Shown: positions 511 to 61,987, counted from the whole stretch's first letter. The stretch: DNA of 62,447 bases, filler included, from Candidatus Omnitrophota bacterium (GCA_043812495.1; 8 parts of 7 records of this genome joined end to end with filler, not necessarily neighbours in it), one strand, 5' to 3'. Numbers and translations: made by a program. Notes: generated by a model from the sequence alone, not told the origin.

Positions 511-700
511 GGCGCCCGCCATTGAATCATTGGCGGGCGCTTCTTTTAATGACCGCATCACTTACGGAACGAGCGAGCGTCCGTCAAATTGCCATGGGCA
601 ATTTGACGAGATCTCGCCAATCTGCCAAAGGCAGATTGGCGGAAGTGACGTAAGTGATATGCGGGAATTAACCAAGCCCGCCAATGATTCAATGGCGGGC
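511..700. repeat. Cluster of REP-like palindromes (GCCCGCCA..TGGCGGGC x2) around a reverse-oriented AATTC..TCAT hairpin element
   Basis: Hairpins at 513-540 and 676-700; CACTTACG..CGTAAGTG stem 549-669; the same motifs recur at 39518 and 61958. Confidence 0.75.
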
Positions 701-921
701 TGGGATCCACGTTCATCCAATACAACATGGCATAATGTCTTTTGGCCTATGTAGTTACATACCTGTCATACTCTAACCCGGACAGTAACGTTTAATCTTT
801 TAAACAATGGAACAATCCGTCTGCTTAATGGTATTTGTTATTCAAAATGAATGCATTTGTAACCTACTGAAATAGAATAGGTAATGGCTCTATCAAAATA
901 TATATGCAATTTTCTATTGTT

Positions 922-938
922 TTGGTATAATAATTGCT
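922..938 (+). promoter_or_regulatory. Putative sigma54 (-24/-12) promoter
   Basis: TTGGTATAATAATTGCT has GG-N10-GC spacing, upstream of a PEP-CTERM-type EPS operon. Confidence 0.55.
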
Positions 939-1011
939 CTTATTAACATCACAACATTAATTTTGTTAAATTACTCTGTCATTACTTATTTAATTTTAAA
1001 GGAGGATGGAC

Positions 1012-1200
1012 ATGGTCCAAAAGAGGCTTACGATCACAGAGGTGGCTTCCCTTGTCGGGGTTAGCGCCAAGACGATCGCCCGCTGGGAAAAAGTCGGTAA
1101 AGTGAGAAGGCCCAAACGTGACTGGCGAGGCTGGCGAGTCTATGACGAGAATGATGTGACCCATATCAAGGAATTTCACGAAGCCGTTTTTGAAATATAA
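1012..1200 (+). CDS. Small MerR-family HTH DNA-binding protein
   Basis: LTITEVASLVGVSAKTIARWEK..PKRDWRGWRVY; GGAGG SD at 1001-1005 fits ATG 1012. Confidence 0.85.
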   Translation: MVQKRLTITEVASLVGVSAKTIARWEKVGKVRRPKRDWRGWRVYDENDVTHIKEFHEAVFEI

Positions 1201-1220
1201 ACAAAAAGGAGTGATCCATT

Positions 1221-2012
1221 ATGAAAAGACTATTAAAAAGAAGCATGGGCTTTGGCGCGGGGGGACTGGTGATGCTTTTGTTTTCTGCTGGCATTTGCCA
1301 TGGGCAGGGTGCTCTAGGGATTATTGCCGCGGAAACATCGACTGATTTACCCCTCAAAGGCGTTCAGACAGAATCCCTGATCCAAGAGCAAGATTTGCCT
1401 AACACGGAAATGCCTTTAGGAGATTCAAGCAAATATACTCTTGGTATTAACGATGTCATAAAAATTGACGTGCTGCGTCATCCTGAGGTCAGCGGAGAAT
1501 ACATCATTAATAACGAAGGAAAGATTCAATATGAATTTGTAGGTGACGTGAAAATCATCGGACTTACGAAAGATGAGGTCAGCGATAACTTGATTGAACT
1601 TTTATCAAAGTACGTTATTGACCCGGAAGTGACCGTTAAAATAACCGGGTATAACAGCAAAGTCGTTTATGTGATTGGTGAAGTTGGCAATCCTGGAAAA
1701 ATTTATATGCGCGGAGATACCATCACCGTGCGTGAAGCCCTTGTTCAGGCCGGACTGCCCACCCTGGGAGCTTCAACGCGCAAATGCCGCTTGATCACAC
1801 CGGCAGACAAAGGAAACGCCCAAACAAAATATGTCAATGTCTTCAGCCTTATTTATGAAGGGGACTTGAGAGAGAATATAGTGATGAAACCCGGGGATAC
1901 GCTTTATATTCCCGCCACGATCATGACAAAAGCCATGCGTGTCATCGCGCCGATCGCTCAACCTGTGACCACGGCAGCCGGGGCGGGATCAACCGTAATG
2001 ACGGGATTTTAA
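1221..2012 (+). CDS. Polysaccharide biosynthesis/export protein (Wza-like, Poly_export + SLBB)
   Basis: YTLGINDVIKIDV..VYVIGEVGNPG..EALVQAG..MKPGDTLYIP. Confidence 0.9.
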   Translation: MKRLLKRSMGFGAGGLVMLLFSAGICHGQGALGIIAAETSTDLPLKGVQTESLIQEQDLPNTEMPLGDSSKYTLGINDVIKIDVLRHPEVSGEYIINNEGKIQYEFVGDVKIIGLTKDEVSDNLIELLSKYVIDPEVTVKITGYNSKVVYVIGEVGNPGKIYMRGDTITVREALVQAGLPTLGASTRKCRLITPADKGNAQTKYVNVFSLIYEGDLRENIVMKPGDTLYIPATIMTKAMRVIAPIAQPVTTAAGAGSTVMTGF

Positions 2013-2056
2013 AAAACCGAAATGATGTTGAAATATTATAATTTTATTTGCTTGAT

Positions 2057-2154
2057 CCCCGCTTCTTGCTTTCGCAAGAAAGCAGCGGGGTTAATTCGGT
2101 CATGCACTTATGTTCTGCCGACATACCGTCGGCATCCATAAGTTCAGACCTCAT
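2057..2154 (+). repeat. Hairpin-TAATTC-hairpin-TCAT element
   Basis: CCCCGC..GCGGGG, TTAATTC, ACTTATG..CATAAGT stem, TCAT, directly before the next RBS. Confidence 0.7.
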
Positions 2155-2175
2155 TAAAGAGAAAGGAACTCCAAG

Positions 2176-3477
2176 ATGGAAGAAATCAGCGTTGGCGGAA
2201 TATCCCCCATCGAGTATTTAAGAATATTATTTAGACGCAAATGGATCATTATTATTCCGACCTTCATAGGTTTGGTTTGCGGAATATGCTCCGGCATGTT
2301 AATGCCTAAGAAATACCAATCCAACACGGTTATTCTCGTAGAAGAAGGAAAATCAGACAATCCCCTTTTCAATAATATCGCTATTTCAACGAATGTCGGC
2401 CAGCGCATCGCCACGATTAAAGAATCCATGCTGGGATGGAACAGTCTTGTCAAGCTGGTCAAAAGACTCAATCTCGATCAAGATGTCAAAAACAGCTACG
2501 AGTACGAAAAACTCATTCTTAACCTAAGAAGAAATACGCATATAAGCCTCAAAGGACCCAATATCATCGACCTGACCCATGTGGGGGCTGACCCGCAAGT
2601 GACTCAGGACATTGTTAAGAATATTACAGAAATATTTATTGAGCGCAATGTGGAAGCGCAGAATCAAGAGACATCCGATGCCATCAAATTCATCGAAGAG
2701 CAGCTCAAAGTCTATAGCGGGAAAATCAAGTCCGCTGAAATTGCCGAACTTCAAGATAAACTCAACGCATTGCTTGTCGATTCCACAGACGAACATCCTC
2801 TCGTCAAGAAAATACGCGGACAGATCAAGTCCAAACAGGAAGAGCTCAAAAAAGAAGGATTGGAGTACCGCGAAGACGTTGTCCTCAACAAAGAGACCAC
2901 TAACCCAATCGTTGATGATATTCGAAAGGCCCTGGATGGGCTGCAGAGCAAAGTCAAGGCCGGTTCGCAGGGCACAAGCGAACGTTCAGGAAATCTTGAC
3001 GATGATATTTATAAACTTATGCTGATTGAGAAAATGGATGATGTGATGGCGCGCGATATCCGGGTCAATGAACAAATCTACAATATGCTCTTGCAGAGAC
3101 TCGAAACGGCCAAAATCACAGAACGGCTTCAGTCCTCCAAAGAAGGAACGCGCTATACGATTCTCGATCCGCCCCGGCTCCCCTTGAAACCATTCAAACC
3201 AAACAAGCCGCTCATCGCGATGGTCGGATTATTTTTAGGATGCATGGCGGGGATCGGCTTTGTTTTCTTAAGAGAATTTCTGGATAAATCATTTTTGGAT
3301 GTTCAGGATGCCAAAGAATATTTTGGTCAGCCCTTGCTTGGCGCGATTTCACGCATCGCGACTTCTGAAACGATGACCCAAGAAACGGACCGCACGCGTT
3401 TTATGGTTCTCGTCGTCTGCGCGATCGGCATTACAGCCGTTATCGCCGCGATGTTTATCTCAAATATTATTCATTAA
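2176..3477 (+). CDS. Polysaccharide chain-length determinant (Wzz/GumC/Wzc N-terminal-like)
   Basis: N-terminal YLRILFRRKWIII + TM, coiled coil, HPLV motif, ILDPPRLPLKPFKPN + TM. Confidence 0.9.
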   Translation: MEEISVGGISPIEYLRILFRRKWIIIIPTFIGLVCGICSGMLMPKKYQSNTVILVEEGKSDNPLFNNIAISTNVGQRIATIKESMLGWNSLVKLVKRLNLDQDVKNSYEYEKLILNLRRNTHISLKGPNIIDLTHVGADPQVTQDIVKNITEIFIERNVEAQNQETSDAIKFIEEQLKVYSGKIKSAEIAELQDKLNALLVDSTDEHPLVKKIRGQIKSKQEELKKEGLEYREDVVLNKETTNPIVDDIRKALDGLQSKVKAGSQGTSERSGNLDDDIYKLMLIEKMDDVMARDIRVNEQIYNMLLQRLETAKITERLQSSKEGTRYTILDPPRLPLKPFKPNKPLIAMVGLFLGCMAGIGFVFLREFLDKSFLDVQDAKEYFGQPLLGAISRIATSETMTQETDRTRFMVLVVCAIGITAVIAAMFISNIIH

Positions 3478-3488
3478 AGAGGTCTCGC

Positions 3489-34398: not shown

Positions 34399-34532
34399 AG
34401 CTCTGTGGCCTAACGGCCATGGTGTCTTTGCTTAGGGTGTTCCGACATTCCACCTTCTGCGGAAGTCGGAACCCCGACCCAGTCCGCCAAGAATTATGAC
34501 GGACTGGCGTCGGGGTAGAAAGACAGATCCTT

Positions 34533-34952: not shown

Positions 34953-34958
34953 TCCATC

Positions 34959-35795
34959 GTGACGAAATTCGCCGATCTTCATATCCACACGCAGTACTCC
35001 GACGGTACATTATCCTGCCAAGATATCATCACCGAATCCCTTCAAGCCGGTCTTGCCTGCATCAGCATTACCGATCATGATTCACTTGATGGCATCAAGC
35101 CGACCATGGCTTTGGCCAAGGAGGTGAATCTCGAAGTGATTTCCGGCATTGAATTATCTTCGGAAATCAATGGTAAGGATATCCATATTCTCGGTTATTT
35201 TATCGATGAGGAGAACCAGGCCCTTCTTCAAACGCTTAAGAAGATTCAGCAAATTCGTATCGAACGCATCAAGAAAATGATTCAGAAACTTAAAGAACTT
35301 GATATCGGTAATATCCATCTTGAAGAAGTTTGTTCTCTGGGCGCTTCTAAGGCTCTTGGCCGTCCGCATTTGGCCGCTTGCTTGGAACAGAAAGGATATG
35401 TCTCATCGATTAAGGAGGCCTTTGATCGTTTTCTAGCTGAGGGAAAACCGGCCTATGTGAAGAAATATAAACAGTCTCCGCAAGAGGCTATCGATTCGAT
35501 TCGTCAGGCCGATGGGCTGGCGGTCTTAGCGCATCCTATGGTCTCTGATGTCGATGATCTGATTCCTGCATTTGTTGAAGCCGGCCTCAAAGGCTTGGAA
35601 ATATTTTATCCCGGTTATCAGGAAAAAACGATACAATATTATGAAGGGCTTGCCCAAAAATACCAGCTGTTGATCACGGGCGGCTCAGATTCTCACGGAA
35701 AGACAAAGAGTCATACGGCGATTGGTTGCGTCAAAATTCCTTATGATTTGGTTGAACGATTAAAGGATCTTTATGCGCGTGAAAAGAGAAAATGA
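34959..35795 (+). CDS. PHP-domain metal-dependent phosphoesterase (TrpH-like)
   Basis: DLHIHTQYSDG, ITDHD, HILGY, LAHP, GGSDSHG. Confidence 0.9.
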   Translation: MTKFADLHIHTQYSDGTLSCQDIITESLQAGLACISITDHDSLDGIKPTMALAKEVNLEVISGIELSSEINGKDIHILGYFIDEENQALLQTLKKIQQIRIERIKKMIQKLKELDIGNIHLEEVCSLGASKALGRPHLAACLEQKGYVSSIKEAFDRFLAEGKPAYVKKYKQSPQEAIDSIRQADGLAVLAHPMVSDVDDLIPAFVEAGLKGLEIFYPGYQEKTIQYYEGLAQKYQLLITGGSDSHGKTKSHTAIGCVKIPYDLVERLKDLYAREKRK

Positions 35796-36891
35796 CCATC
35801 GAGATATTGACTTCATGAAAATGGCCTATGGATTAGCCTTGCGCGCCAAAGGAAGGACTTCTCCCAATCCATTGGTGGGAGCCGTTATCGTCAAACAGAA
35901 TCGCGTGATTTCTATCGGCTATCATCAGCGTTGCGGCGGTGATCACGCGGAAATCATAGCTCTTAAAAAAGCCGGACCCAGAGCCAAAGGCGCCAAACTT
36001 TATGTCACGCTTGAGCCATGCGCTCATTTTGGCCGCACGCCTCCCTGTGCTGATCGCATTATCCAAAGCGGGATCAAGGAAGTGATTGTGGGGATGAAAG
36101 ACCCTAATCCGGTCACTTGCGGCCGATCGTTGCGGAGATTACGGCAGTCGGGCATTAAAGTCAAAGTCGGCTTTCTAAAGCAAGAATTATCCAAGATGAA
36201 TGAAGCGTTCATTAAATATATAAAATATAAAATGCCTTTTGTGGTGGCCAAATGCGCGCAAACCCTTGACGGCAAGGTCGCGACTCGGACAGGTCAGTCC
36301 CGATGGATCACGTCGAGTAAAACAAGAGAGATCAGCCGCCGCCTGCGCAAAGATTTTGATGCCATCGTGGTCGGAGTCAATACCGTGCGCAAGGATAATC
36401 CTTTCTTGAACGCGACAGGTCCATCCAAGCCGATCAAGAAAATAATCATTGATTCGACTCTCGATACGCCGGTGCGTGCCCGGTTGTTTCAGAACACAAG
36501 ACCGCAAGACATTACTCTTTGCGCAACCAAAGAGGCTCGCAAAAACAAATTAAAGACGTTTACCAAGAAGGGCATTAATGTTATGATTTGTCCTGGAGCC
36601 AAGGGGCGGGTTTCTTTGCGCTATGTCTTTCGTGCACTGGCCCAAAGAGAAATAACAAATATTTTGATTGAAGGCGGTTCGCAGATCATCGGTTCCGCTC
36701 TCAAAAAAAAACTGGTTGATAAGATGTGGGTTTTGATCGCTCCAAAGATATTGGGCGATCAAAAGGCTATAAGTTCCGTGAGGGGTTTAAGTCCTTTGCG
36801 CATCGATCAGGCCATCCTGTTAAAGGATTTAGCCTGTTTAAAAATTGATCAAGATTTATGGGTGGAAGCCTATGTTTGCAGGAATCGTTGA
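35773..36891 (+). CDS. ribD: Riboflavin deaminase/reductase
   Basis: TSPNPLVGAV, HAE, LEPCAHFGRTPPC, IEGG; start may be GTG 35779. Confidence 0.95.
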   Translation: MRVKRENDHRDIDFMKMAYGLALRAKGRTSPNPLVGAVIVKQNRVISIGYHQRCGGDHAEIIALKKAGPRAKGAKLYVTLEPCAHFGRTPPCADRIIQSGIKEVIVGMKDPNPVTCGRSLRRLRQSGIKVKVGFLKQELSKMNEAFIKYIKYKMPFVVAKCAQTLDGKVATRTGQSRWITSSKTREISRRLRKDFDAIVVGVNTVRKDNPFLNATGPSKPIKKIIIDSTLDTPVRARLFQNTRPQDITLCATKEARKNKLKTFTKKGINVMICPGAKGRVSLRYVFRALAQREITNILIEGGSQIIGSALKKKLVDKMWVLIAPKILGDQKAISSVRGLSPLRIDQAILLKDLACLKIDQDLWVEAYVCRNR

Positions 36892-37462
36892 AGAATCCGG
36901 ACGCGTTAAGAAAATAGAACGCAAGAAAAACCTTTTTGTTTTGACGATTGAAGCCAAAAAGGTTCATCTGGGCACAGTCATCGGGCAGAGCATAGCCGTC
37001 GACGGTGTTTGCTTGACGGTGACGAAAAAGAGAAACCGTTTTTTGACCTTTGACGTGATGCTAGAGACAATTCGACGTACAACTTTTCAATACTTAAAAG
37101 AAGGCGATCCAGTCAATCTTGAGCGGTCGTTGCGGGCGAACAGCCGTATCGACGGACATTTTGTCCAGGGGCACGTGGAAGGCGTGGGAACCATCGTCAA
37201 AAGAGTCACCGTTCCTAATTATGAAGAATTCCATATTCAAATACCGAAAGGCCTCACCCGTTATGTCGTCGAAAAAGGTTCCGTCTGTGTCGACGGAATC
37301 AGCTTAACGGTGGGCGAGGTGAAGAGAAATGTTTTTCGGATCTATATCATTCCGCACACGCTTAAGATCACGACCCTAGGACGCAAAAAGGCTTCCAGCA
37401 AGGTCAATATCGAGACGGATATTTTAGCTAAATACATTCTGGACAAGAAAGTCAGGCAATGA
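36872..37462 (+). CDS. ribE: Riboflavin synthase alpha chain
   Basis: MFAGIVE N-terminus, DGVCLTV, VNLER, GHFVQGHV. Confidence 0.95.
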   Translation: MFAGIVEESGRVKKIERKKNLFVLTIEAKKVHLGTVIGQSIAVDGVCLTVTKKRNRFLTFDVMLETIRRTTFQYLKEGDPVNLERSLRANSRIDGHFVQGHVEGVGTIVKRVTVPNYEEFHIQIPKGLTRYVVEKGSVCVDGISLTVGEVKRNVFRIYIIPHTLKITTLGRKKASSKVNIETDILAKYILDKKVRQ

Positions 37463-38697
37463 AAAAACGCGTTGTCATTACGGGCCTGGGAATTCTCACA
37501 AGCAACGGAAAAGGCAAAGAGGAATACTGGCAGGCCTTGAGAGACGGCAAGGTCGGCTATAAGCCGGTCACGTTGTTTGATGCCTCAGAATTCCGCGTCA
37601 ACCAAGCCGGTGAAATAAGCGATTTTGACGCCAAGGTCTATATGGGCCTCAAAGGATTGCGGTCGCTCGACAGAAGCACAAAACTGCTTGTCTCAGCTTC
37701 CAAATTGGCGGTTGCCGACAGCCGATTTATCATCACCGAAGAGAACACCAATGATATTGGGGTTTCCGTGGGAACGACGTTGGGCAGTATCAAGAGCATC
37801 AGCGATTTTGATGAAGTGACTTTAAGAGAAGGACCGCGCTACACAAATCCGGCCCTGTTTCCCAATACCGTCATTAACTCACCCGCCAGTCAGGTTTCGA
37901 TCTGGAATAATATCAAAGGTTTTAACACGACGATCTCGACGGGATTTACCGCCAGCATCGATGCGATGAGTTATGCCTATGACTTCTTGCAATATGGGCG
38001 CGCCAAATTGATTTATACGGGAAGTGTCGAAGAGATGTGCCGGCAGACCTTTTTCGGTTTTTATGCTCTTAAGTTTATGTCCGGCTCAAAAGATGGCGAT
38101 GAATTTATTAACTGTCCCTTTGATAAAAGAAGAAACGGGATCACATTCGGCGAAGGGGCGTGTTTGATGGCGATGGAAGATTTTGAGCATGCGAAGAAAA
38201 GAAATGCTCCGATAATGGCTGAAGTTTTGGGATTCGGATACAGTTTTGATCCGTTCCGGATTCATAAATATAATCCGCGGGCAACGGGCTTAAAGAGTTC
38301 TATTGTTTTTGCGCTCGAAAATGCCGAGCTTAAGCCCAAAGACATTGATTATATTTGCGCCAATGCCAATTCAACACCCATGGCCGATAAAGTGGAGACC
38401 TTAGCGATTAAAGAAGTCTTTGGGGAGCAGGCCTACAAAGTTCCCGTCAGTAGCGTCAAATCCATGATTGGGGAATGCTTTAGCGCCTCGGGCGCTTTTG
38501 CGGTGGCCGCGGCGCTAGGGGCGCTCCTTAAAGATTTTATTCCACCGACGGTCAATTACCGGGATAGGGATCCCGATTGTGATCTGGATTATGTTCCCAA
38601 TCAAGCGCGTTCGGCCAAATTGAAGAATATTTTGATTATTACATGCGGACCAAACGGCAGTAATTCCTGCATGATCATCAGGAGGTTTGAAGGATGA
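37459..38697 (+). CDS. Ketosynthase-fold protein lacking the catalytic triad (chain-length-factor-like)
   Basis: FabF-like throughout, but STGFTAS (Cys>Phe), ICANANST (His>Asn), SMIGEC (His>Glu). Confidence 0.85.
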   Translation: MKKRVVITGLGILTSNGKGKEEYWQALRDGKVGYKPVTLFDASEFRVNQAGEISDFDAKVYMGLKGLRSLDRSTKLLVSASKLAVADSRFIITEENTNDIGVSVGTTLGSIKSISDFDEVTLREGPRYTNPALFPNTVINSPASQVSIWNNIKGFNTTISTGFTASIDAMSYAYDFLQYGRAKLIYTGSVEEMCRQTFFGFYALKFMSGSKDGDEFINCPFDKRRNGITFGEGACLMAMEDFEHAKKRNAPIMAEVLGFGYSFDPFRIHKYNPRATGLKSSIVFALENAELKPKDIDYICANANSTPMADKVETLAIKEVFGEQAYKVPVSSVKSMIGECFSASGAFAVAAALGALLKDFIPPTVNYRDRDPDCDLDYVPNQARSAKLKNILIITCGPNGSNSCMIIRRFEG

Positions 38698-39443
38698 AAT
38701 TTTTACAAGGCAAAGTCGCGCTTGTCACAGGAGGTTCACGCGGAATTGGAAAGGCCATTGTCCTTATGCTCGCCCACCAAGGTTGTGACGTGGCCTTCAG
38801 TTTTCAGAAAAGCAAAGACGCGGCCTTGGTTTTGGAAAAGGAAATAAAAAGTTGCGGCGTTAGAGGGAAAGCCAGTTGCGTGGATGTGACCGATTTTGAT
38901 CAAGTCAAGATATGGATCGAGGAAACAAAAAATAAATTTGGACAGCTGGATATTTTGATCAACAATGCCGGCATCTTGGCGGATAAAGCCCTGATGATGA
39001 TGGAACAAAAAGACTGGCAAAGTGTGATCGATACGAATTTAAACGGTTTGTTTAACGTGACGCGTTCTTGCATCGTGACATTCCTCAAGCAAAAAAGCGG
39101 CCAGGTCATCAATATATCATCCGTGAGCGGCATCGTGGGCTTGCCTCGCCAGACCAATTATTCCGCGTCCAAAGGCGGTATGATCGCATTTACAAAAGCT
39201 TTGGCCAAGGAAGTAGCGGGTTATGGTATTCAGGTCAATGCCATTGCGCCCGGATTTATCGAAACCGATATGCTCAAGGGTCTCACACAAGAGCAAAAAA
39301 CAAAAATCCTTGAATCGATTCCCCTGGCAAGAATCGGCGCTCCTGAGGATGTGGCGAATTGTGTTAAATTTCTATTAAGCCAGCAAGCAAAATACATAAC
39401 CGGTCAAGTTGTCCAAGTGGACGGAGGACTGGCAATCCGTTAG
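38694..39443 (+). CDS. fabG: 3-oxoacyl-ACP reductase
   Basis: TGGSRGIG, NNAG, YSASK, PGFIETDM. Confidence 0.93.
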   Translation: MKFLQGKVALVTGGSRGIGKAIVLMLAHQGCDVAFSFQKSKDAALVLEKEIKSCGVRGKASCVDVTDFDQVKIWIEETKNKFGQLDILINNAGILADKALMMMEQKDWQSVIDTNLNGLFNVTRSCIVTFLKQKSGQVINISSVSGIVGLPRQTNYSASKGGMIAFTKALAKEVAGYGIQVNAIAPGFIETDMLKGLTQEQKTKILESIPLARIGAPEDVANCVKFLLSQQAKYITGQVVQVDGGLAIR

Positions 39444-39476
39444 GAGTCGAAATATTATGTTTGTATTTGTTTAATA

Positions 39477-39547
39477 CCCCCACACCAATTATCTCATCAT
39501 TGGTGTGGGGGTCAATTCGCCCGCCATTGAATCAGTGGCGGGCTCAT
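39477..39547 (+). repeat. Hairpin-CAATTC-hairpin-TCAT element
   Basis: CCCCCACACCAAT..ATTGGTGTGGGGG, TCAATTC, GCCCGCC..GGCGGGC, TCAT. Confidence 0.75.
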
Positions 39548-39566
39548 TGAAAGGAGAGCCCCTATT

Positions 39567-40001
39567 ATGCAATTAGATATTGAACAAATTAAGAACGTCA
39601 TCCCGCATCGTTTTCCTTTTTTAATGATCGATCGCGTCTTAGACGTTGTGCCCAACGAAAAACTCATTGCGATTAAGAATGTTTCCACCAATGAACATTA
39701 TTTTGTGGGGCATTTCCCGCAAGAGAAAGTCATGCCCGGCGTATTGATCACAGAAGCCATGGCCCAGGCCGGCTGCATCTATTTTTATTACAGCAAAAAT
39801 TTGCAGGGTAAGAAATTGATTTACTATCTCGGAAAAGTGACCGTTAGATTTATGGCCCCGGTTGTCCCTGGCGATCAGCTGAGAATCGAGGTTACAACAG
39901 GAAAGTTTTTGCCCAAAGTAGGAATTCTCAAAACAAAGGCCTTTGTCGAAGACAAAACCGTTGCCGAAGCAGAAATTGTTTTTAGCACAAAGGAAGTTTA
40001 A
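39567..40001 (+). CDS. fabZ: 3-hydroxyacyl-ACP dehydratase
   Basis: IPHRFPFLMIDR, GHFP..MPGVLITEAMAQ, VVPGDQL. Confidence 0.93.
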   Translation: MQLDIEQIKNVIPHRFPFLMIDRVLDVVPNEKLIAIKNVSTNEHYFVGHFPQEKVMPGVLITEAMAQAGCIYFYYSKNLQGKKLIYYLGKVTVRFMAPVVPGDQLRIEVTTGKFLPKVGILKTKAFVEDKTVAEAEIVFSTKEV

Positions 40002-40269
40002 CTCCCGCCGCAATAAAAACTCGCATCTTTGACAATCATAGCCAAAAGATTGACGCATTCAGCGACCCCGCCGTTTGCATTCTGAAAGAATGCGGCGGGG
40101 TCGCTCTCAGCGTCAACCCTGAGGGAGGAAAAATAGAAAATCCCACCCTTTTGACTTTAACCAAAAGGGTGGGACTATTGAGGCATTCCGAAAGATTGAC
40201 GAATAAAGGCATAAGTGATAAACTACACTCCAGTTATTGTTAACTACGGTTGTACAAATATTGTTATTT

Positions 40270-40513
40270 CCCCGTGCCGAAAATCGGCACGGGATAAATT
40301 CGCGCAATGAACTTACGTTCCTCTAAATGACTTCACAACTTAGCGAGTGTTAACGAAGCTAAGTTGTGTGACGGAATTTACTCCGCACCTTTGAGACATA
40401 TCAAATCAATTTGCTAAAGGTGCGGAGCTAATTCGTGCAGTCACTTATGTTCATTCACTTCGTTCATTCCATAAGTGACGCACTCATGAGTCGTCCGTAA
40501 GTTCAGTGCTCAT
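40270..40513. repeat. Nested AATTC..TCAT hairpin elements upstream of the tRNA
   Basis: Outer GAACTTACG..CGTAAGTTC stem encloses an inverted copy and an inner GTCACTTATG..CATAAGTGAC copy. Confidence 0.7.
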
Positions 40514-40516
40514 TTA

Positions 40517-40591
40517 CGGGGCGTAGCGCAGCTTGGCTAGCGCGCAACGTTCGGGACGTTGAGGTCATGGGTTCGAATCCCATCGCCCCGA
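40517..40591 (+). tRNA. tRNA-Pro (CGG)
   Basis: Acceptor CGGGGCG/CGCCCCG, anticodon arm CAACG-TTCGGGA-CGTTG, T-arm ATGGG-TTCGAAT-CCCAT; CCA not encoded. Confidence 0.95.
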
Positions 40592-40639
40592 TCAGGCTAT
40601 TAATCAATATCTGCTTAAAGAATGAATTTTAGAAAAAGA

Positions 40640-40858
40640 CGCAGCTTGACCGCCATTGATTCGTTGGCGGTCTTGACCGCCATTGGTTCATTGGCGGTCA
40701 TCCGCCGACGAATTAGTGGCGGATGGCTAGCGCGCAACGTTCGGGACGTTGAGGTCATGGGTTTCCGCCACGTCAAAATGACGGAGTCATTTTGACGGGC
40801 GAGATCTCGGCTTATTCCGCCGAAGGCGGAACAAGCCGGACAAATCCCATCGCTCCGA
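40640..40858 (+). pseudogene. Second tRNA-Pro(CGG) copy interrupted by palindromes in the D- and T-loops
   Basis: CGCAGCTTG [3 hairpins] GGCTAGCGCGCAACGTTCGGGACGTTGAGGTCATGGGTT [2 hairpins] AATCCCATCGCTCCGA. Confidence 0.8.
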
Positions 40859-40907
40859 TTTTGATTCCAAGGTTTGCTAAGGTTGTCTTCTTTTGCCAAC
40901 AATCAAG

Positions 40908-41195
40908 ATGAATAAAGAACTCAAGAGAAAGCAAGCCCGTTTTATTTATACAGGCAGGGTTCAGGGTGTTGGTTTTCGCTTCACGGTACAGCGCATCGCT
41001 TCAGATCTCAACCTCGTGGGTTGGGTAAGAAATTTGCCTGATGGCCGCGTTGAAGCACTTGTCGAAGGTGAAGAAAAGTCTCTTGAGGAATTCATCGGGC
41101 GAATCGATAATCAATTTCAGGGATATATCAGGAAAAAAGACATTGTCTTCCAAGACCCGAAGGGGAAATACTCCTCTTTTGAAATCAATTTTTAG
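40908..41195 (+). CDS. acyP: Acylphosphatase
   Basis: [21 protein letters not shown]. Confidence 0.93.
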
Positions 41196-41333
41196 AACCG
41201 TAAAATTCAGAATCCATGACATGCAAAAGGAATCAAGGCAGTATGTATTTTGAGACAGCGGCTATTGGCGTTATTGTGCTTCTTGCGGCTTTAGCTCTTC
41301 TGTAATTGATAATTTTGCAATAAAGTATTTTTT

Positions 41334-42059
41334 ATGCGCTACGGAATCTTTTCAGATATTCACGGTAATCTTCAGGCCTTGGAGGTTATCGTGCGTGCTT
41401 TAAAAAAAGAGCACATTGATCGCTATCTGTGCGTGGGCGATATCATCGGCTATGGAGCGAATCCCCAAGAGTGCATTAAGGCTGTTGTGAATCTCAAGGC
41501 CGCGTGTGTTGCCGGAAATCATGATTGGGCGATACTGAGTAAGGTCGATATCCAATATTTTAATCCCATGGCGGCGGAGGCTGTTTATTGGACGCGGGAA
41601 AACACGACAAAAGAAAATAAAGATTTTTTGGAAAATTTAGAATTAGTCTACAAAGACGAACAGCTCATGGCGGTACACGGAACGTTAAGTGAACCCGAAT
41701 ATTTCGATTATTTAATGGACCGTCGATTAGCGCGGGAGACGTTTACGCTCATGGACCGCGCAATTTGTTTTGTCGGGCATTCGCATATTCCGGGTATTTT
41801 TGTTCAGAAGCAAGAATTGATTGCTTATGCCTCTGTCGTTGATATCACGCTAGAGGAGGGATGTCGGTATATTGTCAATACGGGCAGTGTCGGCCAGCCG
41901 CGCGACGGGAGCCCCATGGCCGCTTATTGCGTGTTTGACTCCGTAAAAAAAAACGTGTGCGTCAAAAGGGTTAATTATGATATTGAAGAAGCCCAAAGGC
42001 GAATTCTTTTGGCCGGTTTACCGCCGTATCTAGCCAGCCGACTCTCCTTTGGTCGGTAA
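41334..42059 (+). CDS. Metallophosphoesterase
   Basis: SDIHGN, GDIIGYG, GNHD, GHSH, NTGSVGQPRDG. Confidence 0.92.
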   Translation: MRYGIFSDIHGNLQALEVIVRALKKEHIDRYLCVGDIIGYGANPQECIKAVVNLKAACVAGNHDWAILSKVDIQYFNPMAAEAVYWTRENTTKENKDFLENLELVYKDEQLMAVHGTLSEPEYFDYLMDRRLARETFTLMDRAICFVGHSHIPGIFVQKQELIAYASVVDITLEEGCRYIVNTGSVGQPRDGSPMAAYCVFDSVKKNVCVKRVNYDIEEAQRRILLAGLPPYLASRLSFGR

Positions 42060-42265
42060 ACAAGAAGGGAATAGTATTCTTATATTTGATTGATCCCCGC
42101 CCATCAAAATGGTCAAACAATTTTGATGGGCGGGGTTAATTCAGCCAGTGACTTACGCTCCTTTTCAAGTCGCGTAAGTCACCCCATTTTTGTCCCCCAG
42201 GCGAAATAGGGGAAAATAAAGTTAATTTTGATGCAAATTTATGCAAAAAGGATAATTTTTCAGTA

Positions 42266-42564
42266 ATGGCCGAAAATGAGATTTTACAACTGTCCTTCCT
42301 GCCACAAACCACTTGGGGCGATAAAATCCTCAACTGTTTCTCCGATGAAATGCGGAATTCTTATAAGAATGGTTTAGCTCGGGAATTAATGCTTTCAATC
42401 ACTCAAAAGATGGAGTTGTTTTTACATATTATTCCCAAATTAAATCATTACGCTGAGAAGATGAAAAATGTCATAAAAAATGATTCTAAAAATATTGAAG
42501 AATGTCTTTTGCGAGAATTTGCATACTCTGGAATTGAAGATGAACTAAGAATTGCTTTTATGAG
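42266..42564 (+). pseudogene. AT-rich hypothetical gene truncated by IS630
   Basis: ORF runs into the IS630 terminal repeat at 42565. Confidence 0.45.
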
Positions 42565-42571
42565 TACTACC

Positions 42572-43267
42572 CTAACAACATTGAATTTGCGGATAGAGAC
42601 GCTTTAGTTTGATGCGAGCATCATCAGTTGTAAATTGCCAATCAACAGATTTTTGTCTGGCATTGCGATCTCTTTCCCAACATTTGGTTTCATGCTTCAA
42701 TGTTTGTAGATCAGGAACGCGTCTCTTCAAACATTGATTTGTTAAGACGCTGAGCTCAATCTCAGCTATATTTAACCAACTGCCATGTTTAGGCGTATAA
42801 TGAATCTCAAGACGCTCAGCCAATCGACGAGCTTCTTGTGGTTCAAAAGCTTCATAAAGAGAAGCAATTTTATGAGTATTCAAATTATCACAAACAAGTC
42901 GAATTTTTTTCACATGGGCATAGTCAACATCCAACAATTCTTTAATCTCTTGCGCCCAGTCAATCATAGTTTTGCGTTCTCGGATGTTAACCTTTCGCCA
43001 GCTTCCCAAAGGCTCTGTAAACATGAAATTGACCGCTGTCCCATTGCGTTCATATTTGTAATCGTATTTGCGTGGTTGCCCCGGCTTAAGCGGCAACGGA
43101 TCTTTTATTTCTTTAATCAATTGCAAAGGTTGTTCATCCATACATACCATCGGAATTTCTGGATCATACGCCAAACAATCCAAGGACAAAATGTCTTCCA
43201 TGTTGGCAACAAACTCCGCATTTTTCTCAGGCGGTATGCGCCAGCATTTCTCCAAATGCGGTTTCAA
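42572..43267 (-). CDS. IS630 transposase DDE part (orfB)
   Basis: VCMDE, LVCDNLNTH, PKHGSWLNIAE. Confidence 0.92.
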   Translation of the reverse strand: MKPHLEKCWRIPPEKNAEFVANMEDILSLDCLAYDPEIPMVCMDEQPLQLIKEIKDPLPLKPGQPRKYDYKYERNGTAVNFMFTEPLGSWRKVNIRERKTMIDWAQEIKELLDVDYAHVKKIRLVCDNLNTHKIASLYEAFEPQEARRLAERLEIHYTPKHGSWLNIAEIELSVLTNQCLKRRVPDLQTLKHETKCWERDRNARQKSVDWQFTTDDARIKLKRLYPQIQCC

Positions 43268-43707
43268 CTCGTTTTTTTTAAAGTCTTACGTATCGTCTCG
43301 GTTGATACTGTATCAACAACTTCTAAAGTAATCATGTTATCGGCTAACATTTTTAATGTCCAGCGATCTCGTCCTTCGGGCGCTTTGCTGCAACTCATCG
43401 CAATTAAATGTGCTTCTTTTTCTCCGTCCAGCTTCTTACGACGTGATGGCTTGTCTTGCGGCTTTCTTTCTAATGCTTTTTCTAATCCTTCTTCTACTAA
43501 ACGTCTACGGACATTAAACACTGTTTTTGCGTGGCATCGAAATATTTCTGCGATTTCTTTATCTTCTCGATTCGCTCCGTTGACATCTGCTTCTAGTAAA
43601 ATATTTGCGTGTTTAATTTTGTATGCCGCGACTTTACCTTTGCTGACTATTTCTTTTAGTTGTTTTTGCTCTGCTTTGCTGAGCCTTACGATGTATTTTT
43701 TAACCAT
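43264..43707 (-). CDS. IS630 transposase HTH part (orfA), joined to orfB by a probable -1 frameshift
   Basis: A8 run in ..LKKTS*; a -1 shift gives LKKNELKPH. Confidence 0.9.
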   Translation of the reverse strand: MVKKYIVRLSKAEQKQLKEIVSKGKVAAYKIKHANILLEADVNGANREDKEIAEIFRCHAKTVFNVRRRLVEEGLEKALERKPQDKPSRRKKLDGEKEAHLIAMSCSKAPEGRDRWTLKMLADNMITLEVVDTVSTETIRKTLKKTS

Positions 43708-43885
43708 TTCAAATTCCTCCTTTCTTCTATTATCGGAGAAATTTGAAACTTTTACATAGATAATTTCAATATTGTTCGGGTAGTANNNNNNNNNNNNNNN
43801 NNNNNNNNNNNNNNNNNNNNNNNNNNNNNTTAATTAATTAANNNNNNNNNNNNNNNNNNNNNNNNNNNNNNNNNNNNNNNNNNNN

Positions 43886-47659: not shown

Positions 47660-47768
47660 TTAATGGTCTTTTCCTTATTAATGGAACAGTCAATAATATT
47701 CTCTCTATACGAGAAAGAAGACCTAATATTGACTTCCACCGTTTCTTTAATAAAGAGAAAGTCAATAA
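47660..47768. repeat. ~109-bp element, copy 2
   Basis: Near-identical to 159-267. Confidence 0.9.
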
Positions 47769-47972
47769 TGAGTCCCGCCTCTTGCATTCTGCAAGAATGC
47801 GGCGGGGAGAATTAACCCCCACACCAATTTCCTGATAGTGCTGAGTTATGTTGAACCATTTTTACTTTTTATGACCAAAATACTGCTTTCTCCCTTAACC
47901 AATAATTGGTGCGGGGGGTCAAATTCCGTCAAACGACTTAGCTCGCTGTGTCTCGCTAAGTCGTGACGTCAT
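47768..47972. repeat. Back-to-back AATTC..TCAT hairpin elements
   Basis: Reverse copy 47768-47815, central CCCCCACACCAAT..ATTGGTGCGGGGG arm, forward copy 47922-47972. Confidence 0.65.
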
Positions 47973-48217
47973 TTGAGCTAGAACCTGTTAATATTATTGA
48001 AGTTACAAACTTAAGCCATAATAGCATACGCTAAAAATCGTGTCAAATAAAAATGTATTTATTATGCCTTAAAAACAACAATGGCAGGTTGATAAACAAC
48101 CTGCCACATTTAATGCATACGTTTCGGGCTTCATTCGCGCAGACTCACCCATAGCTTAACACAAAAAGAACCGCTTATTTATTGTAATTCAGCGAGCTCG
48201 ATAGCCTATTGTAAGAC

Positions 48218-59777: not shown

Positions 59778-59819
59778 CAGCAGACAGGAAATGAACGTAA
59801 TTTGTGTGCCCGAAATGGA

Positions 59820-59995
59820 CCCCCCACCACTTTTTAGAGACAACCATGGAATCAAAAGTGGTGGGGATACAAGGGAAAAACGTTTTATTTAACAACAACG
59901 CCTTATTGCTAAAAGTGGTGGGGAGCTGAATTCGCGCAGTGACTTATGTCGCCCACTAACAAAGCATGAACGGACTCCATAAGTCACGCACTCAT
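59820..59995 (+). repeat. Hairpin-GAATTC-hairpin-TCAT element
   Basis: AAAAGTGGTGGGG arms; GTGACTTATG..CATAAGTCAC stem; TCAT before the RBS. Confidence 0.7.
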
Positions 59996-60012
59996 TCAAA
60001 AAGGAGATTATT

Positions 60013-60402
60013 ATGAACGCTTGGGATGGGATGAACCGAAGAAAATTTCCGCGCGCCAATTATCCTTGTCTTGTGATTATCCGCCATTCGCACGCAGGCC
60101 CCGAGGCCTTGCTGACGCATACGGAAAATATCGGTATCGGAGGCGTGTGTGTTATCTTGAAAAGAAATTTAAAACTTTTTATGCCGGTTGAGCTCGAAAT
60201 TGATTTGTTGGATACGACCACGCACATCAAATGCGAAGGTAAGGTTGTCTGGTCCGTGAAACGCAGCAGTGCCGAAGAAAAGAAGCCGTCTTTTTATGAT
60301 ACGGGAATCGAATTCGGCGATATCCCCGAAGTGGATGAAGAGCGTGTTCAGGATGTCGTTGATCGCCTCATGAAGCAAGAAAAAAAATCAGATCAAGACT
60401 AA
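60013..60402 (+). CDS. PilZ-domain protein
   Basis: RRKFPR and NIGIGG c-di-GMP motifs, GKVVW, GIEF. Confidence 0.88.
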   Translation: MNAWDGMNRRKFPRANYPCLVIIRHSHAGPEALLTHTENIGIGGVCVILKRNLKLFMPVELEIDLLDTTTHIKCEGKVVWSVKRSSAEEKKPSFYDTGIEFGDIPEVDEERVQDVVDRLMKQEKKSDQD

Positions 60403-60531
60403 CGTCCATGAAACCAACGCAGCCGTGCGCGTTCACGCGAAGAACGAAAATATTATTCTCCTCTTTTCCCCTGCCCAGATGCAATAGAATGGACACCCGC
60501 AAGCCTATTCTGAACTTCAGGAACTCGACCT

Positions 60532-61884
60532 ATGATTAGGACAAGATTTGCGCCTAGCCCTACGGGATATCTTCATATCGGCGGGGCGCGAACAGCGCTT
60601 TTTAGCTGGATGTATGCGCGCTCGCAGAGTGGTCAATTTGTTCTGCGCATCGAGGACACAGACTTAGCCCGTTCCCAAAAAGAATATTTGGACGATATCC
60701 TTGAGAGCATGACATGGCTGGGACTTTCGTGGGATGAGCTTTATCATCAAAGCGAGCGTTTTGATATTTACAAAGAACATGCCCAGAAATTGCTGAAGGA
60801 GGATAAGGCCTATCAGGAAGGCGAGGCGATCCTTCTGAAGATATCCGGCAATCCCGCTACCGGCGGGATTGCCGAGACCTCGTCATCCGCCGGTCTTAGA
60901 GTCATCAAAAAAGCGGATGACGGGCCCCAGCATATTGTCAAATTCTTTGATCTAATTCACGGAGAGATTCACTTTGACACGGCCACGCTCAAAGATGAGG
61001 TCTTAATTAAATCCGACGGCTCTCCCACCTATAGCTTTGCCTGTGTTGTCGATGATGCTCTTATGGACATTTCCCACGTGATCCGCGGCGACGATCACAT
61101 CTCTAATACCCCAAAACAGATTATGATGTATGAGGCATTAGGTTTTAAAATTCCAAAGTTTGCCCATCTTCCCTTGATTATGGGCGATGACGGCGGCAGG
61201 CTTTCCAAGCGAACCGGAGCGGTTGCCCTAACAGATTATCGGGCGATGGGTTTTGTGTCCAAGGCCGTTGTGAATTATCTTATGCTTTTAGGATGGTCGC
61301 CCGGCAACAACCAAGAAATCATTGAGCTATCTTCGGCCGTCAAAAAATTTTCCATCAAAAAACTTAATAAAGCCAAGGCAGCCTTTTCTTTAGACAAATT
61401 AAAATGGGTCAACGCCCAGCATATCAAACAAATGGCAGCTCAAGACCTAACGGATCTTTTGATTCCATTCTTAAAAGAGAAAAACTATATCGGCGATGAT
61501 TTTGATAGAAAAAGGCTGGAAAGTATTGTAAAATTGTTTCAGTCGAGAATGGATACGCTTTTGGATTTCCTCGAAAGGGCTGATTTTGCCTTTGTCGATG
61601 ATTATGCCGTTAACCAAGAGGCCAAGGCAAAATATCTTTCGCAAGATCGATCTCAAGAGTTTGCTTTGCTATCCAAGAGGCTAAAAGACCTTAAGGAATT
61701 TAATGGGGCGTCAACGGAAAGAGCGTTTCGCGAGCTCGTCGAGGAACTAAATCTTCAGGCCGCGGAGCTTGTGCATCCTGTGCGCGTGGCTCTCTGTGGC
61801 AAAGATGTGGGGCCGGGCCTGTTTGAAACCATGGCGATTATCGGCAAAGAAAAAACCATTGAACGCTTAAATAAAGCTTTTTAA
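60532..61884 (+). CDS. gltX: Glutamate-tRNA ligase with palindromic in-frame insert
   Basis: RFAPSPTGYLHIGG, LRIEDTD, IRGDDHISNT, RLSKR. Confidence 0.96.
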   Translation: MIRTRFAPSPTGYLHIGGARTALFSWMYARSQSGQFVLRIEDTDLARSQKEYLDDILESMTWLGLSWDELYHQSERFDIYKEHAQKLLKEDKAYQEGEAILLKISGNPATGGIAETSSSAGLRVIKKADDGPQHIVKFFDLIHGEIHFDTATLKDEVLIKSDGSPTYSFACVVDDALMDISHVIRGDDHISNTPKQIMMYEALGFKIPKFAHLPLIMGDDGGRLSKRTGAVALTDYRAMGFVSKAVVNYLMLLGWSPGNNQEIIELSSAVKKFSIKKLNKAKAAFSLDKLKWVNAQHIKQMAAQDLTDLLIPFLKEKNYIGDDFDRKRLESIVKLFQSRMDTLLDFLERADFAFVDDYAVNQEAKAKYLSQDRSQEFALLSKRLKDLKEFNGASTERAFRELVEELNLQAAELVHPVRVALCGKDVGPGLFETMAIIGKEKTIERLNKAF

Positions 61885-61916
61885 TTAAGGAGATAGTAAA
61901 ATTTTAATTTGCTATG

Positions 61917-61987
61917 CCCCTCGTCCGCTACAACCGTTGGCGGACTCGGGGTCAATTCGCCCGCCACTGATTCAATGGCGGGCTCAT
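61917..61987 (+). repeat. Hairpin-CAATTC-hairpin-TCAT element
   Basis: Same layout as 39477-39547. Confidence 0.75.

Follow-up and report, generated by a model that had tools for sequence, protein, structure and literature searches.

The closest described system to the elements reported here is that of the Ssn nucleases and their NTS/SRM hairpin repeats, although the published repeat motif does not fit. SsnA, a GIY-YIG protein of 94 aa, binds its hairpin repeat only as single-stranded DNA and cuts a few nucleotides upstream, and copies of the repeat often stand on either side of an ssnA gene (Chenal et al., 2025, Nat Commun 16:2388, PMC11893778). In the portions of that report considered here the role described is in transformation rather than mobility, and the discoverers themselves raise an IS-like origin (PMC11893778). 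The same portions describe the NIMEs of Neisseria, in which RS repeats are bracketed by dRS3 (PMC11893778). For the CGTC-tagged class of REPs, Di Nocera et al. (2013, PMC3733652) state that it 'apparently lacks a dedicated transposase'.

The window analysed here is a stretch of 62,447 nucleotides from a Candidatus Omnitrophota genome (GCA_043812495.1, hereafter G000), composed of seven contig pieces of a 66-contig MAG with N linkers between them. An initial annotation had described in it a genome-wide family of hairpins with fixed AATTC...TCAT boundaries and varying stems; every copy listed is present in the sequence as described, and since the pieces come from across the MAG the label 'genome-wide' is fitting. 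The reading that we favour on balance makes these hairpins the arms of modular palindromic repeats, a DNA-level family of Omnitrophota, rare full-length copies of which encode a single-domain GIY-YIG nuclease of 80-87 aa, the predicted mobiliser. A full-text literature search found no description of this Omnitrophota hairpin family in the portions of text that it returned.

The unit consists, 5' to 3', of an L arm or inverted B, an A hairpin, the junction T-NAA|TTC, a B hairpin and TC-ATTN'A. B, the AATTC...TCAT hairpin, has an outer stem of 5 bp, (T)NAAT/ATTN'(A), in which N and N' covary, then an invariant 2x2 TC/TC loop and a long inner stem that carries a 1-2-nt bulge and closes in ACTTAYG/CRTAAGT; its tip is variable (11 to >180 nt) and houses nested inserts. 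GGGG-T-NAA|TTC joins B to the GC-rich hairpin A, and 5' of A lies either L, a 30-nt AT-rich arm, or an inverted B. A types and B types are freely combined, being shuffled among copies, and whole units as well as other hairpins are found within B tips. The proposal that the element inserts into itself is supported by the nested copy at 40295-40516 and by a comparison within the genome, where the 55-nt and 116-nt B classes share their arms and differ by a 61-nt tip insert.

Near the start of the window the GCCCGCCAYTGAWTCARTGGCGGGC core hairpin stands alone (512-540, no strand assigned); at other sites this module forms A, a complete B tip or an inner hairpin. It is followed by a reversed B of 126 nt (546-671, minus strand, TTAATTC...TCATTAA), the tip of which holds a nested 'double hairpin' insert, H1-GAGATCTCG-H2, and to which an A hairpin of the CCCAGCCCGCCATTGAATCATTGGCGGGCTTGG type is joined (672-704, minus strand). 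The copies that follow are on the plus strand unless stated otherwise. Between a Wza-like gene (1221-2012) and a Wzz-like gene (2176-3477) are an AT-rich L arm of about 30 nt (2023-2055, nhmmer match C9:2023-2055), an A hairpin (2057-2090) and a B hairpin (2092-2157, covariance match C9:2087-2157). In the fabG-fabZ spacer, an L arm (39444-39474, match C14:8206-8236) and an A hairpin of the CCCCCACACCAATT type (39477-39511) precede a B of the 39-nt class (39512-39550), which ends one base 5' of the fabZ SD. The nested copy begins with the A hairpin of an outer unit (40270-40293), the B of which (40295-40516) has as its tip a whole B'-A-B unit, made of an inverted B (40324-40380, minus strand, covariance match C14:9086-9146), an A hairpin with the arms CTCCGCACCTTT...AAAGGTGCGGAG (40381-40427, no strand assigned) and a forward B, CTAATTC...TCATGAG (40428-40490, covariance match C14:9186-9252). 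One copy had been noted to adjoin a tRNA gene, and the last base of this outer B indeed abuts the +1 of tRNA-Pro (40517-40591) with no gap.

Further downstream, an L arm (42066-42091, match C14:10828-10853) and an A hairpin (42095-42135) lead into a partial, degraded B that lacks TCAT and the 3' TCATT boundary (42137-42186). A symmetric B'-A-B unit comprises an inverted B (47765-47815, minus strand), an A hairpin (length 102) with a gene-less loop of about 70 nt (47816-47918, no strand assigned) and a forward B with the variant boundaries CAAATTC...TCATTTG (47919-47975, also a covariance match). Between a ymdB-like and a PilZ gene, the 3' arm only of an A hairpin (AAAAGTGGTGGGGAG, 59911-59925) precedes a B (59927-59998, covariance match C23:3436-3511), followed by an SD and the ATG at 60013. 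Downstream of gltX, an A hairpin of the CCCCTCGTCCGC type (61917-61951), with an L arm on its 5' side, is joined to a B of the 39-nt class (61952-61990), the 3' boundary of which has one change (TCATCGA). Four copies had been placed just 5' of an SD; we find an SD and start at 2176, 39567 and 60013, with a weaker case at 61990.

Across the genome, AATTC...TCATT with five of six inner pairs gave 100 matches, against 1-46 for ten control motif pairs, which is more than chance. A covariance model gave 117 matches at E<=0.01 in the 1.94-Mb MAG, a count that rests on 150 of 659 candidates scored. TC/TC (84) and its reverse-strand form GA/GA (93) stood out when every hairpin combining a 5-bp outer stem, a 2x2 loop and a 4-bp inner stem was counted by its loop: no other non-complementary loop was strongly enriched, the runner-up reaching 46. 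Among 41 genomes of the order, 30 contain the boundary pattern (a reversed-pattern control gave 0-1 per genome), and the covariance model matched 97 of 151 genomes sampled from the phylum. The units represent a sizeable share of intergenic DNA in a streamlined, uncultured phylum.

Units have been gained independently in short spacers between stop codon and SD or beside tRNA genes. Empty sites in relatives were found at both loci compared, at a genus-to-family distance from which exact element ends are not readable: in most of 30 relatives, G001 (the sole genome of the same family) among them, no element lies between fabG and fabZ, and this spacer is occupied in G000 and, independently and with other A and B sequences, in G010, while the tRNA-Pro leader carries a unit in G000 and none in G010 and G018. 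The spacer between stop codon and SD is where operon expression is set, and units placed there may shape expression as well as genome rearrangement. The initial annotation had pictured non-autonomous, hairpin-built repeats that are gained at new sites and nest in themselves, and this part of its model stands; the part that assigned their movement to HUH Y1 transposases is not supported, as discussed below.

No gene other than that of a small GIY-YIG nuclease was found within the element. This gene, of 80-87 aa, lies in the A loop at 12 loci in 11 genomes from several families, with A arms bracketing it on both sides and B' and B outside; these B'-A(GIY)-B loci include one on contig C5 of G000, a pseudogene with four stops in G001, one each in G124, G004 and G051, and two in G010. 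The layout recurs at 5/5 of the nearest homologues from named Omnitrophota or unclassified MAG records, and at 0/60 loci from other phyla. PF01541 spans nearly the entire 84-aa ORF (62.2 bits) and homologues have 77-87 aa; no NCBIfam model scored above its cut-off with this protein, and the nearest solved chain is the UPF0213 protein BH0048 (1ZG2, E=1.4e-8). The boundary pattern was present in 16/17 genomes of the order with a close homologue and 14/24 without (Fisher p=0.014; mean copies 9.8 and 2.0, respectively), in a test where the genomes are related, hence not independent, and which is not subfamily-specific because the homologue search (E<=1e-12, 84-aa query) also catches GIY-YIG genes sitting in tRNA genes. 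The total GIY-YIG count shows a rho of 0.39 with unit copy number. As a separate observation, other small GIY-YIG genes of G000 occupy other hairpins and split tRNA genes.

Set beside the published portions of the Ssn work considered here, the likeness lies in a tiny single-domain GIY-YIG protein with its gene bracketed by inverted copies of a hairpin repeat, in the tens to hundreds of intergenic copies of that repeat, and in a GC-rich stem that has AAT/ATT at its base and is flanked by oriented sequence that is not palindromic (...TCATT-CCCGCG...CGCGGG-AAT-C in NTS, GAATT-N-A-CCCC...GGGG-T-N-AATTC in Omnitrophota). In contrast to what those portions describe, the Omnitrophota nuclease gene sits inside the loop of one hairpin, the unit is built of two or three abutting hairpins including a B with its TC/TC loop, units nest in one another and occupy stop-to-SD gaps, and site gain was found where the Ssn paper covers a role in transformation. 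The SRM search motif as published there (HGTCWY N0-2 YYVSBRH N0-5 WNVSBRG N0-2 RNCYNB) is neither enriched in the Omnitrophota genome (7 matches, 1-5 in five first-order Markov controls) nor a match to A or B (0 of the 7). NIMEs, as far as the same source outlines them, are likewise mosaics of repeat modules, joined at a short conserved palindrome which doubles as the site of the nuclease (PMC11893778), but they differ in sequence and phylum, and the Omnitrophota modules are nesting hairpins.

By analogy with the Ssn nucleases, the GIY-YIG enzyme may mobilise the units by binding its hairpin in single-stranded DNA and nicking nearby, the likeliest point of nicking or exchange being the invariant A/B junction, T-NAA|TTC. 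Nick-primed copying from one copy would then spread the element or replace another copy; units without the gene would be its non-autonomous derivatives, and their position next to an SD would result from entry into operon spacers that are very short, combined with selection for an intact SD and start. The sequence comparisons make the A/B junction the likeliest candidate for a hot spot: A and B are shuffled across it, at an orthologous locus in G010 and G051 the left B' is conserved and the right B is a different one, and an IS200-like element is located exactly at T(C/T)AA|TTC three times. More tentatively, the units could represent a new class of prokaryotic mobile DNA, hairpin-modular and moved solely by an 80-87-aa GIY-YIG single-strand nuclease that nicks hairpin feet (T-NAA|TTC), with modules copied or swapped between copies, homing to the feet of other structures (hairpin tips, the tRNA +1, the stop-to-SD spacer), and the attC-like B acting as the folded recognition and exchange site. 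Should a small GIY-YIG nuclease indeed move the units, they would transpose or home without transposase or recombinase, and the Ssn family, which has until now been linked with the control of transformation, would gain the mobile-element origin that its discoverers guessed at. Nuclease-hairpin pairs of this kind, in which the edges are fixed and the stems free, could also extend the range of programmable enzymes that cut single-stranded DNA.

The alternative that survives best, which we nevertheless regard as unlikely, is that host recombination or replication (or another enzyme) spreads the hairpins and that the GIY-YIG gene is a selfish homing passenger that invades A loops, as homing endonuclease genes do introns. 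It would accommodate the rarity of the gene in G000, where just one intact nuclease-bearing copy of this type was found among about 117, or roughly one per 100 units, together with the presence of G000's other small GIY-YIG genes in other locations noted above. A(GIY) without B in G023, G034 and G061, and G026, which has 12 units and no close nuclease homologue, also fit it, and free shuffling of A and B modules is compatible with recombination between copies. Against a passenger, the high-copy genomes G000, G010, G006 and G018 each have a close nuclease homologue, the B'-A(GIY)-B layout is repeated at 12 loci in several families, and the route by which units reach new spacers is left unexplained.

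It is less probable still that the units are RNA-level elements, that is, transcribed intercistronic hairpins which shape mRNA processing, stability or translation start, with B directly 5' of the SD. Their placement would suit such a role: units fill the stop-to-SD gap, an SD and ORF start lie directly 3' of TCATTN'A in 23/68 G000 copies (an ORF start within 40 nt downstream in 35/68), and G010 units abut the SD exactly in 15/20, with a strong sense bias. Only 2/68 copies have an SD without an ORF, so the repeat itself does not include the SD. Units lie more often in sense orientation (17:10 between co-directional genes among 34 strict units, and 39:23), but antisense copies are common and units are not retained at orthologous sites. 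In favour of an RNA role, TC/TC becomes GA/GA on the opposite strand, a motif that can form tandem sheared pairs. The stems themselves argue against selection on RNA. In the covariation test, for which 5 of the 19 pairs had been pre-filtered for pairing at sequence selection, 12/19 pairs change on both sides, double-change cells number 77 against 22.5 in shuffles (0/500 shuffles reach the observed value), and slid controls are 27-40% paired. Of the 406 stem cells 99.0% are paired with just 2 G-U, and such almost purely Watson-Crick stems indicate a palindrome kept at the DNA level. In Rfam 15, tRNA was the sole match at gathering score in the window and five full loci gave none at E<=0.1, and consensus scans found A not terminator-like and L not promoter-like.

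The mobiliser named in the initial annotation, an IS200/IS605 TnpA or RAYT cleaving PATE/REP-like elements as single-stranded DNA at TCAT, now appears improbable. A hairpin that has a 1-2-nt bulge and is flanked by short, fixed motifs is in keeping with it, as are hairpin ends and the absence of an obvious target duplication on insertion beside a short fixed sequence. The three IS200-like insertions, each at the A/B junction and immediately 3' of T(C/T)AA, mean that a Y1 enzyme acts at that spot. However, none of the seven Y1_Tnp matches in the genome is flanked by A or B, no Y1 gene was found inside any unit, and the ends of the IS200-like element (left ACCCAGCGGGGAATCCCCGCC..., right ...CCACGGCTGTAAAGCCGTGGGTATCTATT) are unlike B. 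The four RAYT-like genes are flanked by repeats of their own, which differ from those of the units. Unit copy number is not correlated with the Y1 count (rho -0.09, 41 genomes), and five genomes with at least 4 units have no Y1 match (G006, G008, G011, G016 and G024, 71-96% complete), G006 having 24 copies. REP elements, including BIMEs, REPINs with RAYT and the GTAG- and CGTC-tagged families, are, in the parts of the survey considered, also tagged short palindromes present in many copies, frequently as pairs of opposite orientation or in mosaics between co-directional or convergent genes (PMC3733652). A subset of B copies terminates in CGTCAT, as in the CGTC tag, but the Omnitrophota tag is STCAT at the 3' side plus AATTC at the 5' side, and the units are linked to a GIY-YIG nuclease rather than a Y1 transposase. 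The stem is the conserved part of REP elements, whereas in Omnitrophota the stems vary and the boundaries are fixed.

In form B resembles an attC site, in which a short, conserved outer stem leads through an unpaired central spacer to an inner stem that has an extrahelical base and ends in a variable structure (in B, a tip of 11 to >180 nt), and units lie at gene boundaries, but use by a tyrosine recombinase in an integron-like cassette system is very improbable, as no integron integrase exceeded the family cut-off (TIGR02249, best matches two Xer-like genes at 89.5 and 71.4 bits, cut-off 265), the units form no arrays and are dispersed over most contigs in both orientations beside housekeeping genes and tRNAs, and the B boundary sequence is one that we take to be distinct from the attC core. 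Finally, the hairpin at 31000-31030, which had been read as an IS200 right end, is part of another multi-copy repeat, located at the ends of contigs C3, C13, C18 and C41, and the ends of the IS200-like element map elsewhere.

The window is not a continuous chromosomal stretch; its seven pieces derive from contigs C9, C11, C13, C14, C16 (both ends), C18 (start) and C23 and are joined by linkers of the form N44-TTAATTAATTAA-N44; the source genome itself is a 1.94 Mb metagenome-assembled genome of 66 contigs, 90.5% complete. Each of the hairpin copies listed in the initial annotation is present in the window sequence. A genome-wide search located ACTTAYG...CRTAAGT at 96 places, nearly all of them lying between ...GGGG-T-(C/T/A)AATTC and TCATT(G/A/T)A. 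Across the genome, AATTC...TCATT with 5/6 inner pairs occurs 100 times, against 1–46 times for ten control motif pairs. An unbiased scan of the genome collected every hairpin in which a perfect outer stem (5 bp) is separated from a perfect inner stem (4 bp) by a 2x2 loop of any sequence. Among the non-complementary loops, strong enrichment was confined to TC/TC (84 cases) and GA/GA (93), the same loop read from the opposite strand; the next loop reached 46. Of 659 candidates in the genome, 150 were scored with a covariance model, which recovered 117 copies at E≤0.01. No Rfam family matched, either in the window at gathering score or in five full loci at E≤0.1. What was first noticed in the window is confirmed, and the family extends far beyond it.

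The hairpin bounded by AATTC and TCAT, here termed B, begins with an outermost 5-bp stem, (T)NAAT/ATTN'(A), followed by a 2x2 TC/TC loop. Inward of this loop lie a 4-bp GC-rich stem, a 5'-arm bulge of 1–2 nt, a roughly 10-bp stem with ACTTAYG/CRTAAGT at its end, and a tip. The tip may be a short loop, once more with TC...TC edges, or it may consist of an inner hairpin or of a large insert. In the source genome the base before AAT covaries with that after ATT (TCAAT/ATTGA 36, TTAAT/ATTAA 18, TAAAT/ATTTA 15, CAAAT/ATTTG 3). Copies fall into length classes of 39, 55–58, 65–69, 73 and 116 nt, plus larger ones. Beside B stands a GC-rich hairpin, A, which has several sequence types, and the junction between the two is an invariant GGGG-T-NAATTC; the commonest 6-mers after YGGGGT are CAATTC, TAATTC and AAATTC (54 cases), the next 6-mer being found 6 times. 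To the left of A in the source genome there is a conserved AT-rich arm of about 30 nt, L (consensus TTGAAATATTATAATTGTATTTGCTTAAT), which has approximately 100 nhmmer matches and is followed by A in nearly all of them. Where L is missing, an inverted B (B') occupies its place, hence there are two unit layouts, L-A-B and B'-A-B. Types of A and types of B occur in many different combinations, and one core hairpin, GCCCGCCAYTGAWTCARTGGCGGGC, has three roles: it serves as A, makes up all that the 39-nt B contains, and forms the inner hairpin in the 73-nt class. No 'empty' A hairpin followed by TNAAT-ATTN'A or the palindrome TNAATTN'A was seen, the 16 and 7 pattern matches not being A hairpins. The idea that L is a sigma-70 promoter and A an intrinsic terminator was rejected, since consensus scans call neither.

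Covariation was counted on a hand-drawn structure laid over an alignment of 22 B hairpins from 14 genomes. It can be seen that 99.0% of the 406 stem cells are paired, and that sliding the partner by 1–3 columns as a control lowers pairing to 27–40%. Changes on both sides were found in 12 of the 19 stem pairs, five of which nineteen (N/N' and the 4-bp inner stem) had to pair for a sequence to be selected, while the ten long-stem pairs had not. Double-change cells numbered 77, compared with 22.5 in shuffles, and none of 500 shuffles reached the observed value. Only 2 of the 406 cells are G-U pairs, copies lie in both orientations and units are not retained at orthologous sites, which is what would be expected if the palindrome is kept as DNA and not through selection acting on a transcript. 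Read on the strand opposite AATTC...TCAT, the 2x2 loop is GA/GA, and with DNA parameters this opposite strand has the more stable fold in 54 of 68 copies. Mismatches of G-T versus A-C type in these 68 copies number 27 versus 21 on the top strand and 34 versus 11 on the bottom strand, giving no clear functional strand.

Members of the family also nest within one another. A complete B'-A-B unit (window 40324–40490) lies within the tip of an outer B at 40295–40516. The 116-nt class consists of the arms of the 55-nt class plus a 61-nt two-hairpin tip insert; the same insert is common to B hairpins of two different arm types, and a related one is contained in the reversed B at window 546–671. These nested copies and tip inserts, together with empty sites in relatives, bear out the initial reading of a non-autonomous, self-nesting element family. 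A second repeat class, two hairpins linked by GAGAYCTCG, sits in B tips of differing arm types at window 575–645, at C18:35870–35985 and in four more 116-nt copies.

The boundary pattern GGGKTHAATTCS-N(20–120)-YCATTDA was sought in 41 genomes of the order and occurs in 30 of them, with 64 copies in the source genome, 30 in G010, 24 in G006, 13 in G018 and 12 in G026, and a reversed-pattern control gave 0–1 per genome. Between genomes the stems vary, but the boundaries remain, as do ACTTAYG/CRTAAGT and the TC edges of the tip. The exact 39-nt class of B was confined to the source genome when 40 relatives were searched, indicating that sequences turn over while boundaries persist. The covariance model, built from the 22 aligned B hairpins of 14 genomes, was also applied to 151 genomes sampled from the phylum, no more than 36 candidates being scored in each; 97 of these genomes have one or more copies at E≤0.001.

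Empty sites, which the initial annotation had proposed seeking in relatives, were found both between fabG and fabZ and 5' of tRNA-Pro. In most of 30 relatives, including G001, the one relative that shares the source genome's family, the fabG-fabZ spacer is a short stop-SD-ATG only. The source genome carries L-A-B there (window 39444–39550), G010 an A-B unit whose A and B sequences are quite different, and G023 an inverted unit. The order fabZ, tRNA-Pro, acylphosphatase is preserved in G010 and G018 with no unit 5' of the tRNA, and the 247-base nested structure at window 40270–40516 is therefore an insertion. These comparisons indicate that the units are gained, not ancestral, although they span genera or families, a distance too great for exact ends or a target duplication to be read. 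Inspection by eye gave no consistent direct repeat around whole units; AGGAG stands on both sides of the fabZ unit and is not repeated at other units. In public reads, words from window 34000–43780 were covered to 5–14%, only in three groundwater runs of one study, and the contigs from these runs (150–640 nt, depth about 2) were too shallow, none bridging a unit, filled or empty.

Units lie within housekeeping operons (fabG/fabZ, wza/wzz-like, ymdB/PilZ) and also after gltX. An ORF start was found within 40 nt of the right end in 35 of the 68 well-formed copies of the source genome, and in 23 of these an SD lies no more than 14 nt away as well. Only 2 of the 68 show an SD with no ORF, and the SD is therefore not part of the repeat. 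In G010, where there is no L arm, SD and ATG directly follow 15 of 20 units. Strict criteria, applied with a crude ORF caller that limits the gene-context counts, retain 34 of the approximately 100 L-bearing units; among these, L starts within 21 nt of an upstream stop in 15 of 19 cases, and between co-directional genes 17 units are sense and 10 antisense. Insertion into very short operon spacers, with selection keeping the SD and start, may explain most of this placement. Two copies end exactly at the +1 position of a tRNA (window 40516/40517 and one on C57), and a further two lie directly against a tRNA gene at its far end. The exact abutment on +1 hints at targeting of a structure's foot.

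The initial annotation had inferred that the hairpins are moved by HUH Y1 transposases (IS200/IS605 TnpA, RAYT), which the genomic evidence does not support. Seven Y1_Tnp matches were found in the source genome. Four are RAYT-like genes of 220–331 aa (C2:46102–47079, C45:203–1198, C4:1223–2215, C47:51913–52575), each bracketed by its own distinct inverted repeats (GGGGTCAGGTCTCGAC..., GGGACGTTGATGATAGTATTACA..., CCAATTACAAACCCGCATTGTAATTGG); such genes would represent REP-like systems of their own within one small genome. Across 41 genomes Y1 count and unit count are not correlated (rho -0.09), and five genomes with at least four units, including G006 with 24, have no Y1 match. A further match is an IS200-like tnpA of 142 aa with an in-frame TAG (element at C64:87–449, C24:108, C8:76609 and C18:19041; the C18 copy looks internally deleted). 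The ends of this element differ from B. Its three copies are inserted exactly in the A/B junction, ...GGGG-T(C/T)AA | IS | TTC-B..., which is thus a site of action of a single-strand-specific enzyme. The hairpin at window 31000–31030, earlier read as an IS200 right end, belongs to another multi-copy repeat. This repeat, ATCAATT-ACCCTGTGCCAAGAGCACAGGGT-ATGAAGGTCTATTCCC..., is distinct from the IS200-like element and meets contig ends at four places: window 30990–31138 (the end of C13) and the ends of C3, C18 and C41.

The evidence points instead to a small GIY-YIG nuclease as the candidate enzyme behind the units. PF01541 has 16 matches in the source genome, mostly in ORFs of about 60–175 aa. 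One 84-aa gene (C5:24309–24563) lies inside the loop of an A hairpin with arms CCCCCACACCAATTATT...AATAATTGGTGTGGGGG, flanked by an inverted B on the left and a forward B on the right. The same B'-A(GIY)-B arrangement occurs in G001 (a pseudogene with four stops), G124, G004, G051 and twice in G010, and A hairpins containing the gene without B were found in G023, G034 and G061; more distant homologues are in split tRNA genes. At the orthologous locus in G010 and G051 the left B' is conserved and the right B is a different one, showing that module replacement takes place at the junction. The five nearest homologues in a species-wide collection (61–74% identity, four of them from Omnitrophota) have B on one or both sides, as against none of 60 loci from other phyla. 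Within the order, 17 genomes have a close homologue and 16 of them show the boundary pattern, compared with 14 of the 24 genomes lacking one (Fisher p=0.014); copies average 9.8 in the first group and 2.0 in the second. This co-occurrence lends weak support, since the query does not single out the subfamily and genomes that are related cannot be counted as independent. No NCBIfam model scored over cut-off for the nuclease, and its nearest solved relative is a UPF0213 protein.

About a dozen other small GIY-YIG genes of the source genome (on C50, C29, C51, C66, C36, C17, C8, C4 and C62 and at C18:44539) lie in other hairpin types, beside or inside tRNA genes that are duplicated around them. A GIY-YIG gene with a duplicated tRNA is similarly arranged after tRNA-Pro in G010 and G018. 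In the symmetric unit at window 47765–47975, the loop of A, approximately 70 nt long (47830–47902), has no ORF and may be a remnant of a lost nuclease gene.

Among described systems, Ssn comes closest: SsnA is a 94-aa single-domain GIY-YIG nuclease whose hairpin repeat (NTS/SRM) is bound only as ssDNA, with cleavage a few nt upstream. Its gene often stands between two copies of the repeat; in Neisseria a function in natural transformation was shown, and an IS-like origin was no more than suggested (PMC11893778). The two architectures are clearly alike, and the A hairpin, having AAT/ATT at its feet, is similar to NTS. However, the SRM search motif is not enriched in the source genome (7 matches, 1–5 in controls, none in A or B), and that paper contains no B hairpin, nesting or stop-to-SD placement (PMC11893778). 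CGTC-tagged REPs are described as lacking a transposase (Di Nocera et al., 2013, PMC3733652); among the B copies, only some have the CGTCAT ending. In form, B resembles the attC site of integrons, but the source genome has no integron integrase. The listings of full-text literature searches showed no description of this Omnitrophota family. We file the units with the nuclease-associated hairpin repeats of Ssn/REP type, as a variant.

A separate feature of the window is contig C11 (6022–28584), the full length of which is taken up by one open frame of about 7,520 codons. Over its first 1,333 residues this frame gave only a weak match to Peptidase_M48 (E=5e-5), and it looks like a giant protein gene truncated by the contig ends.
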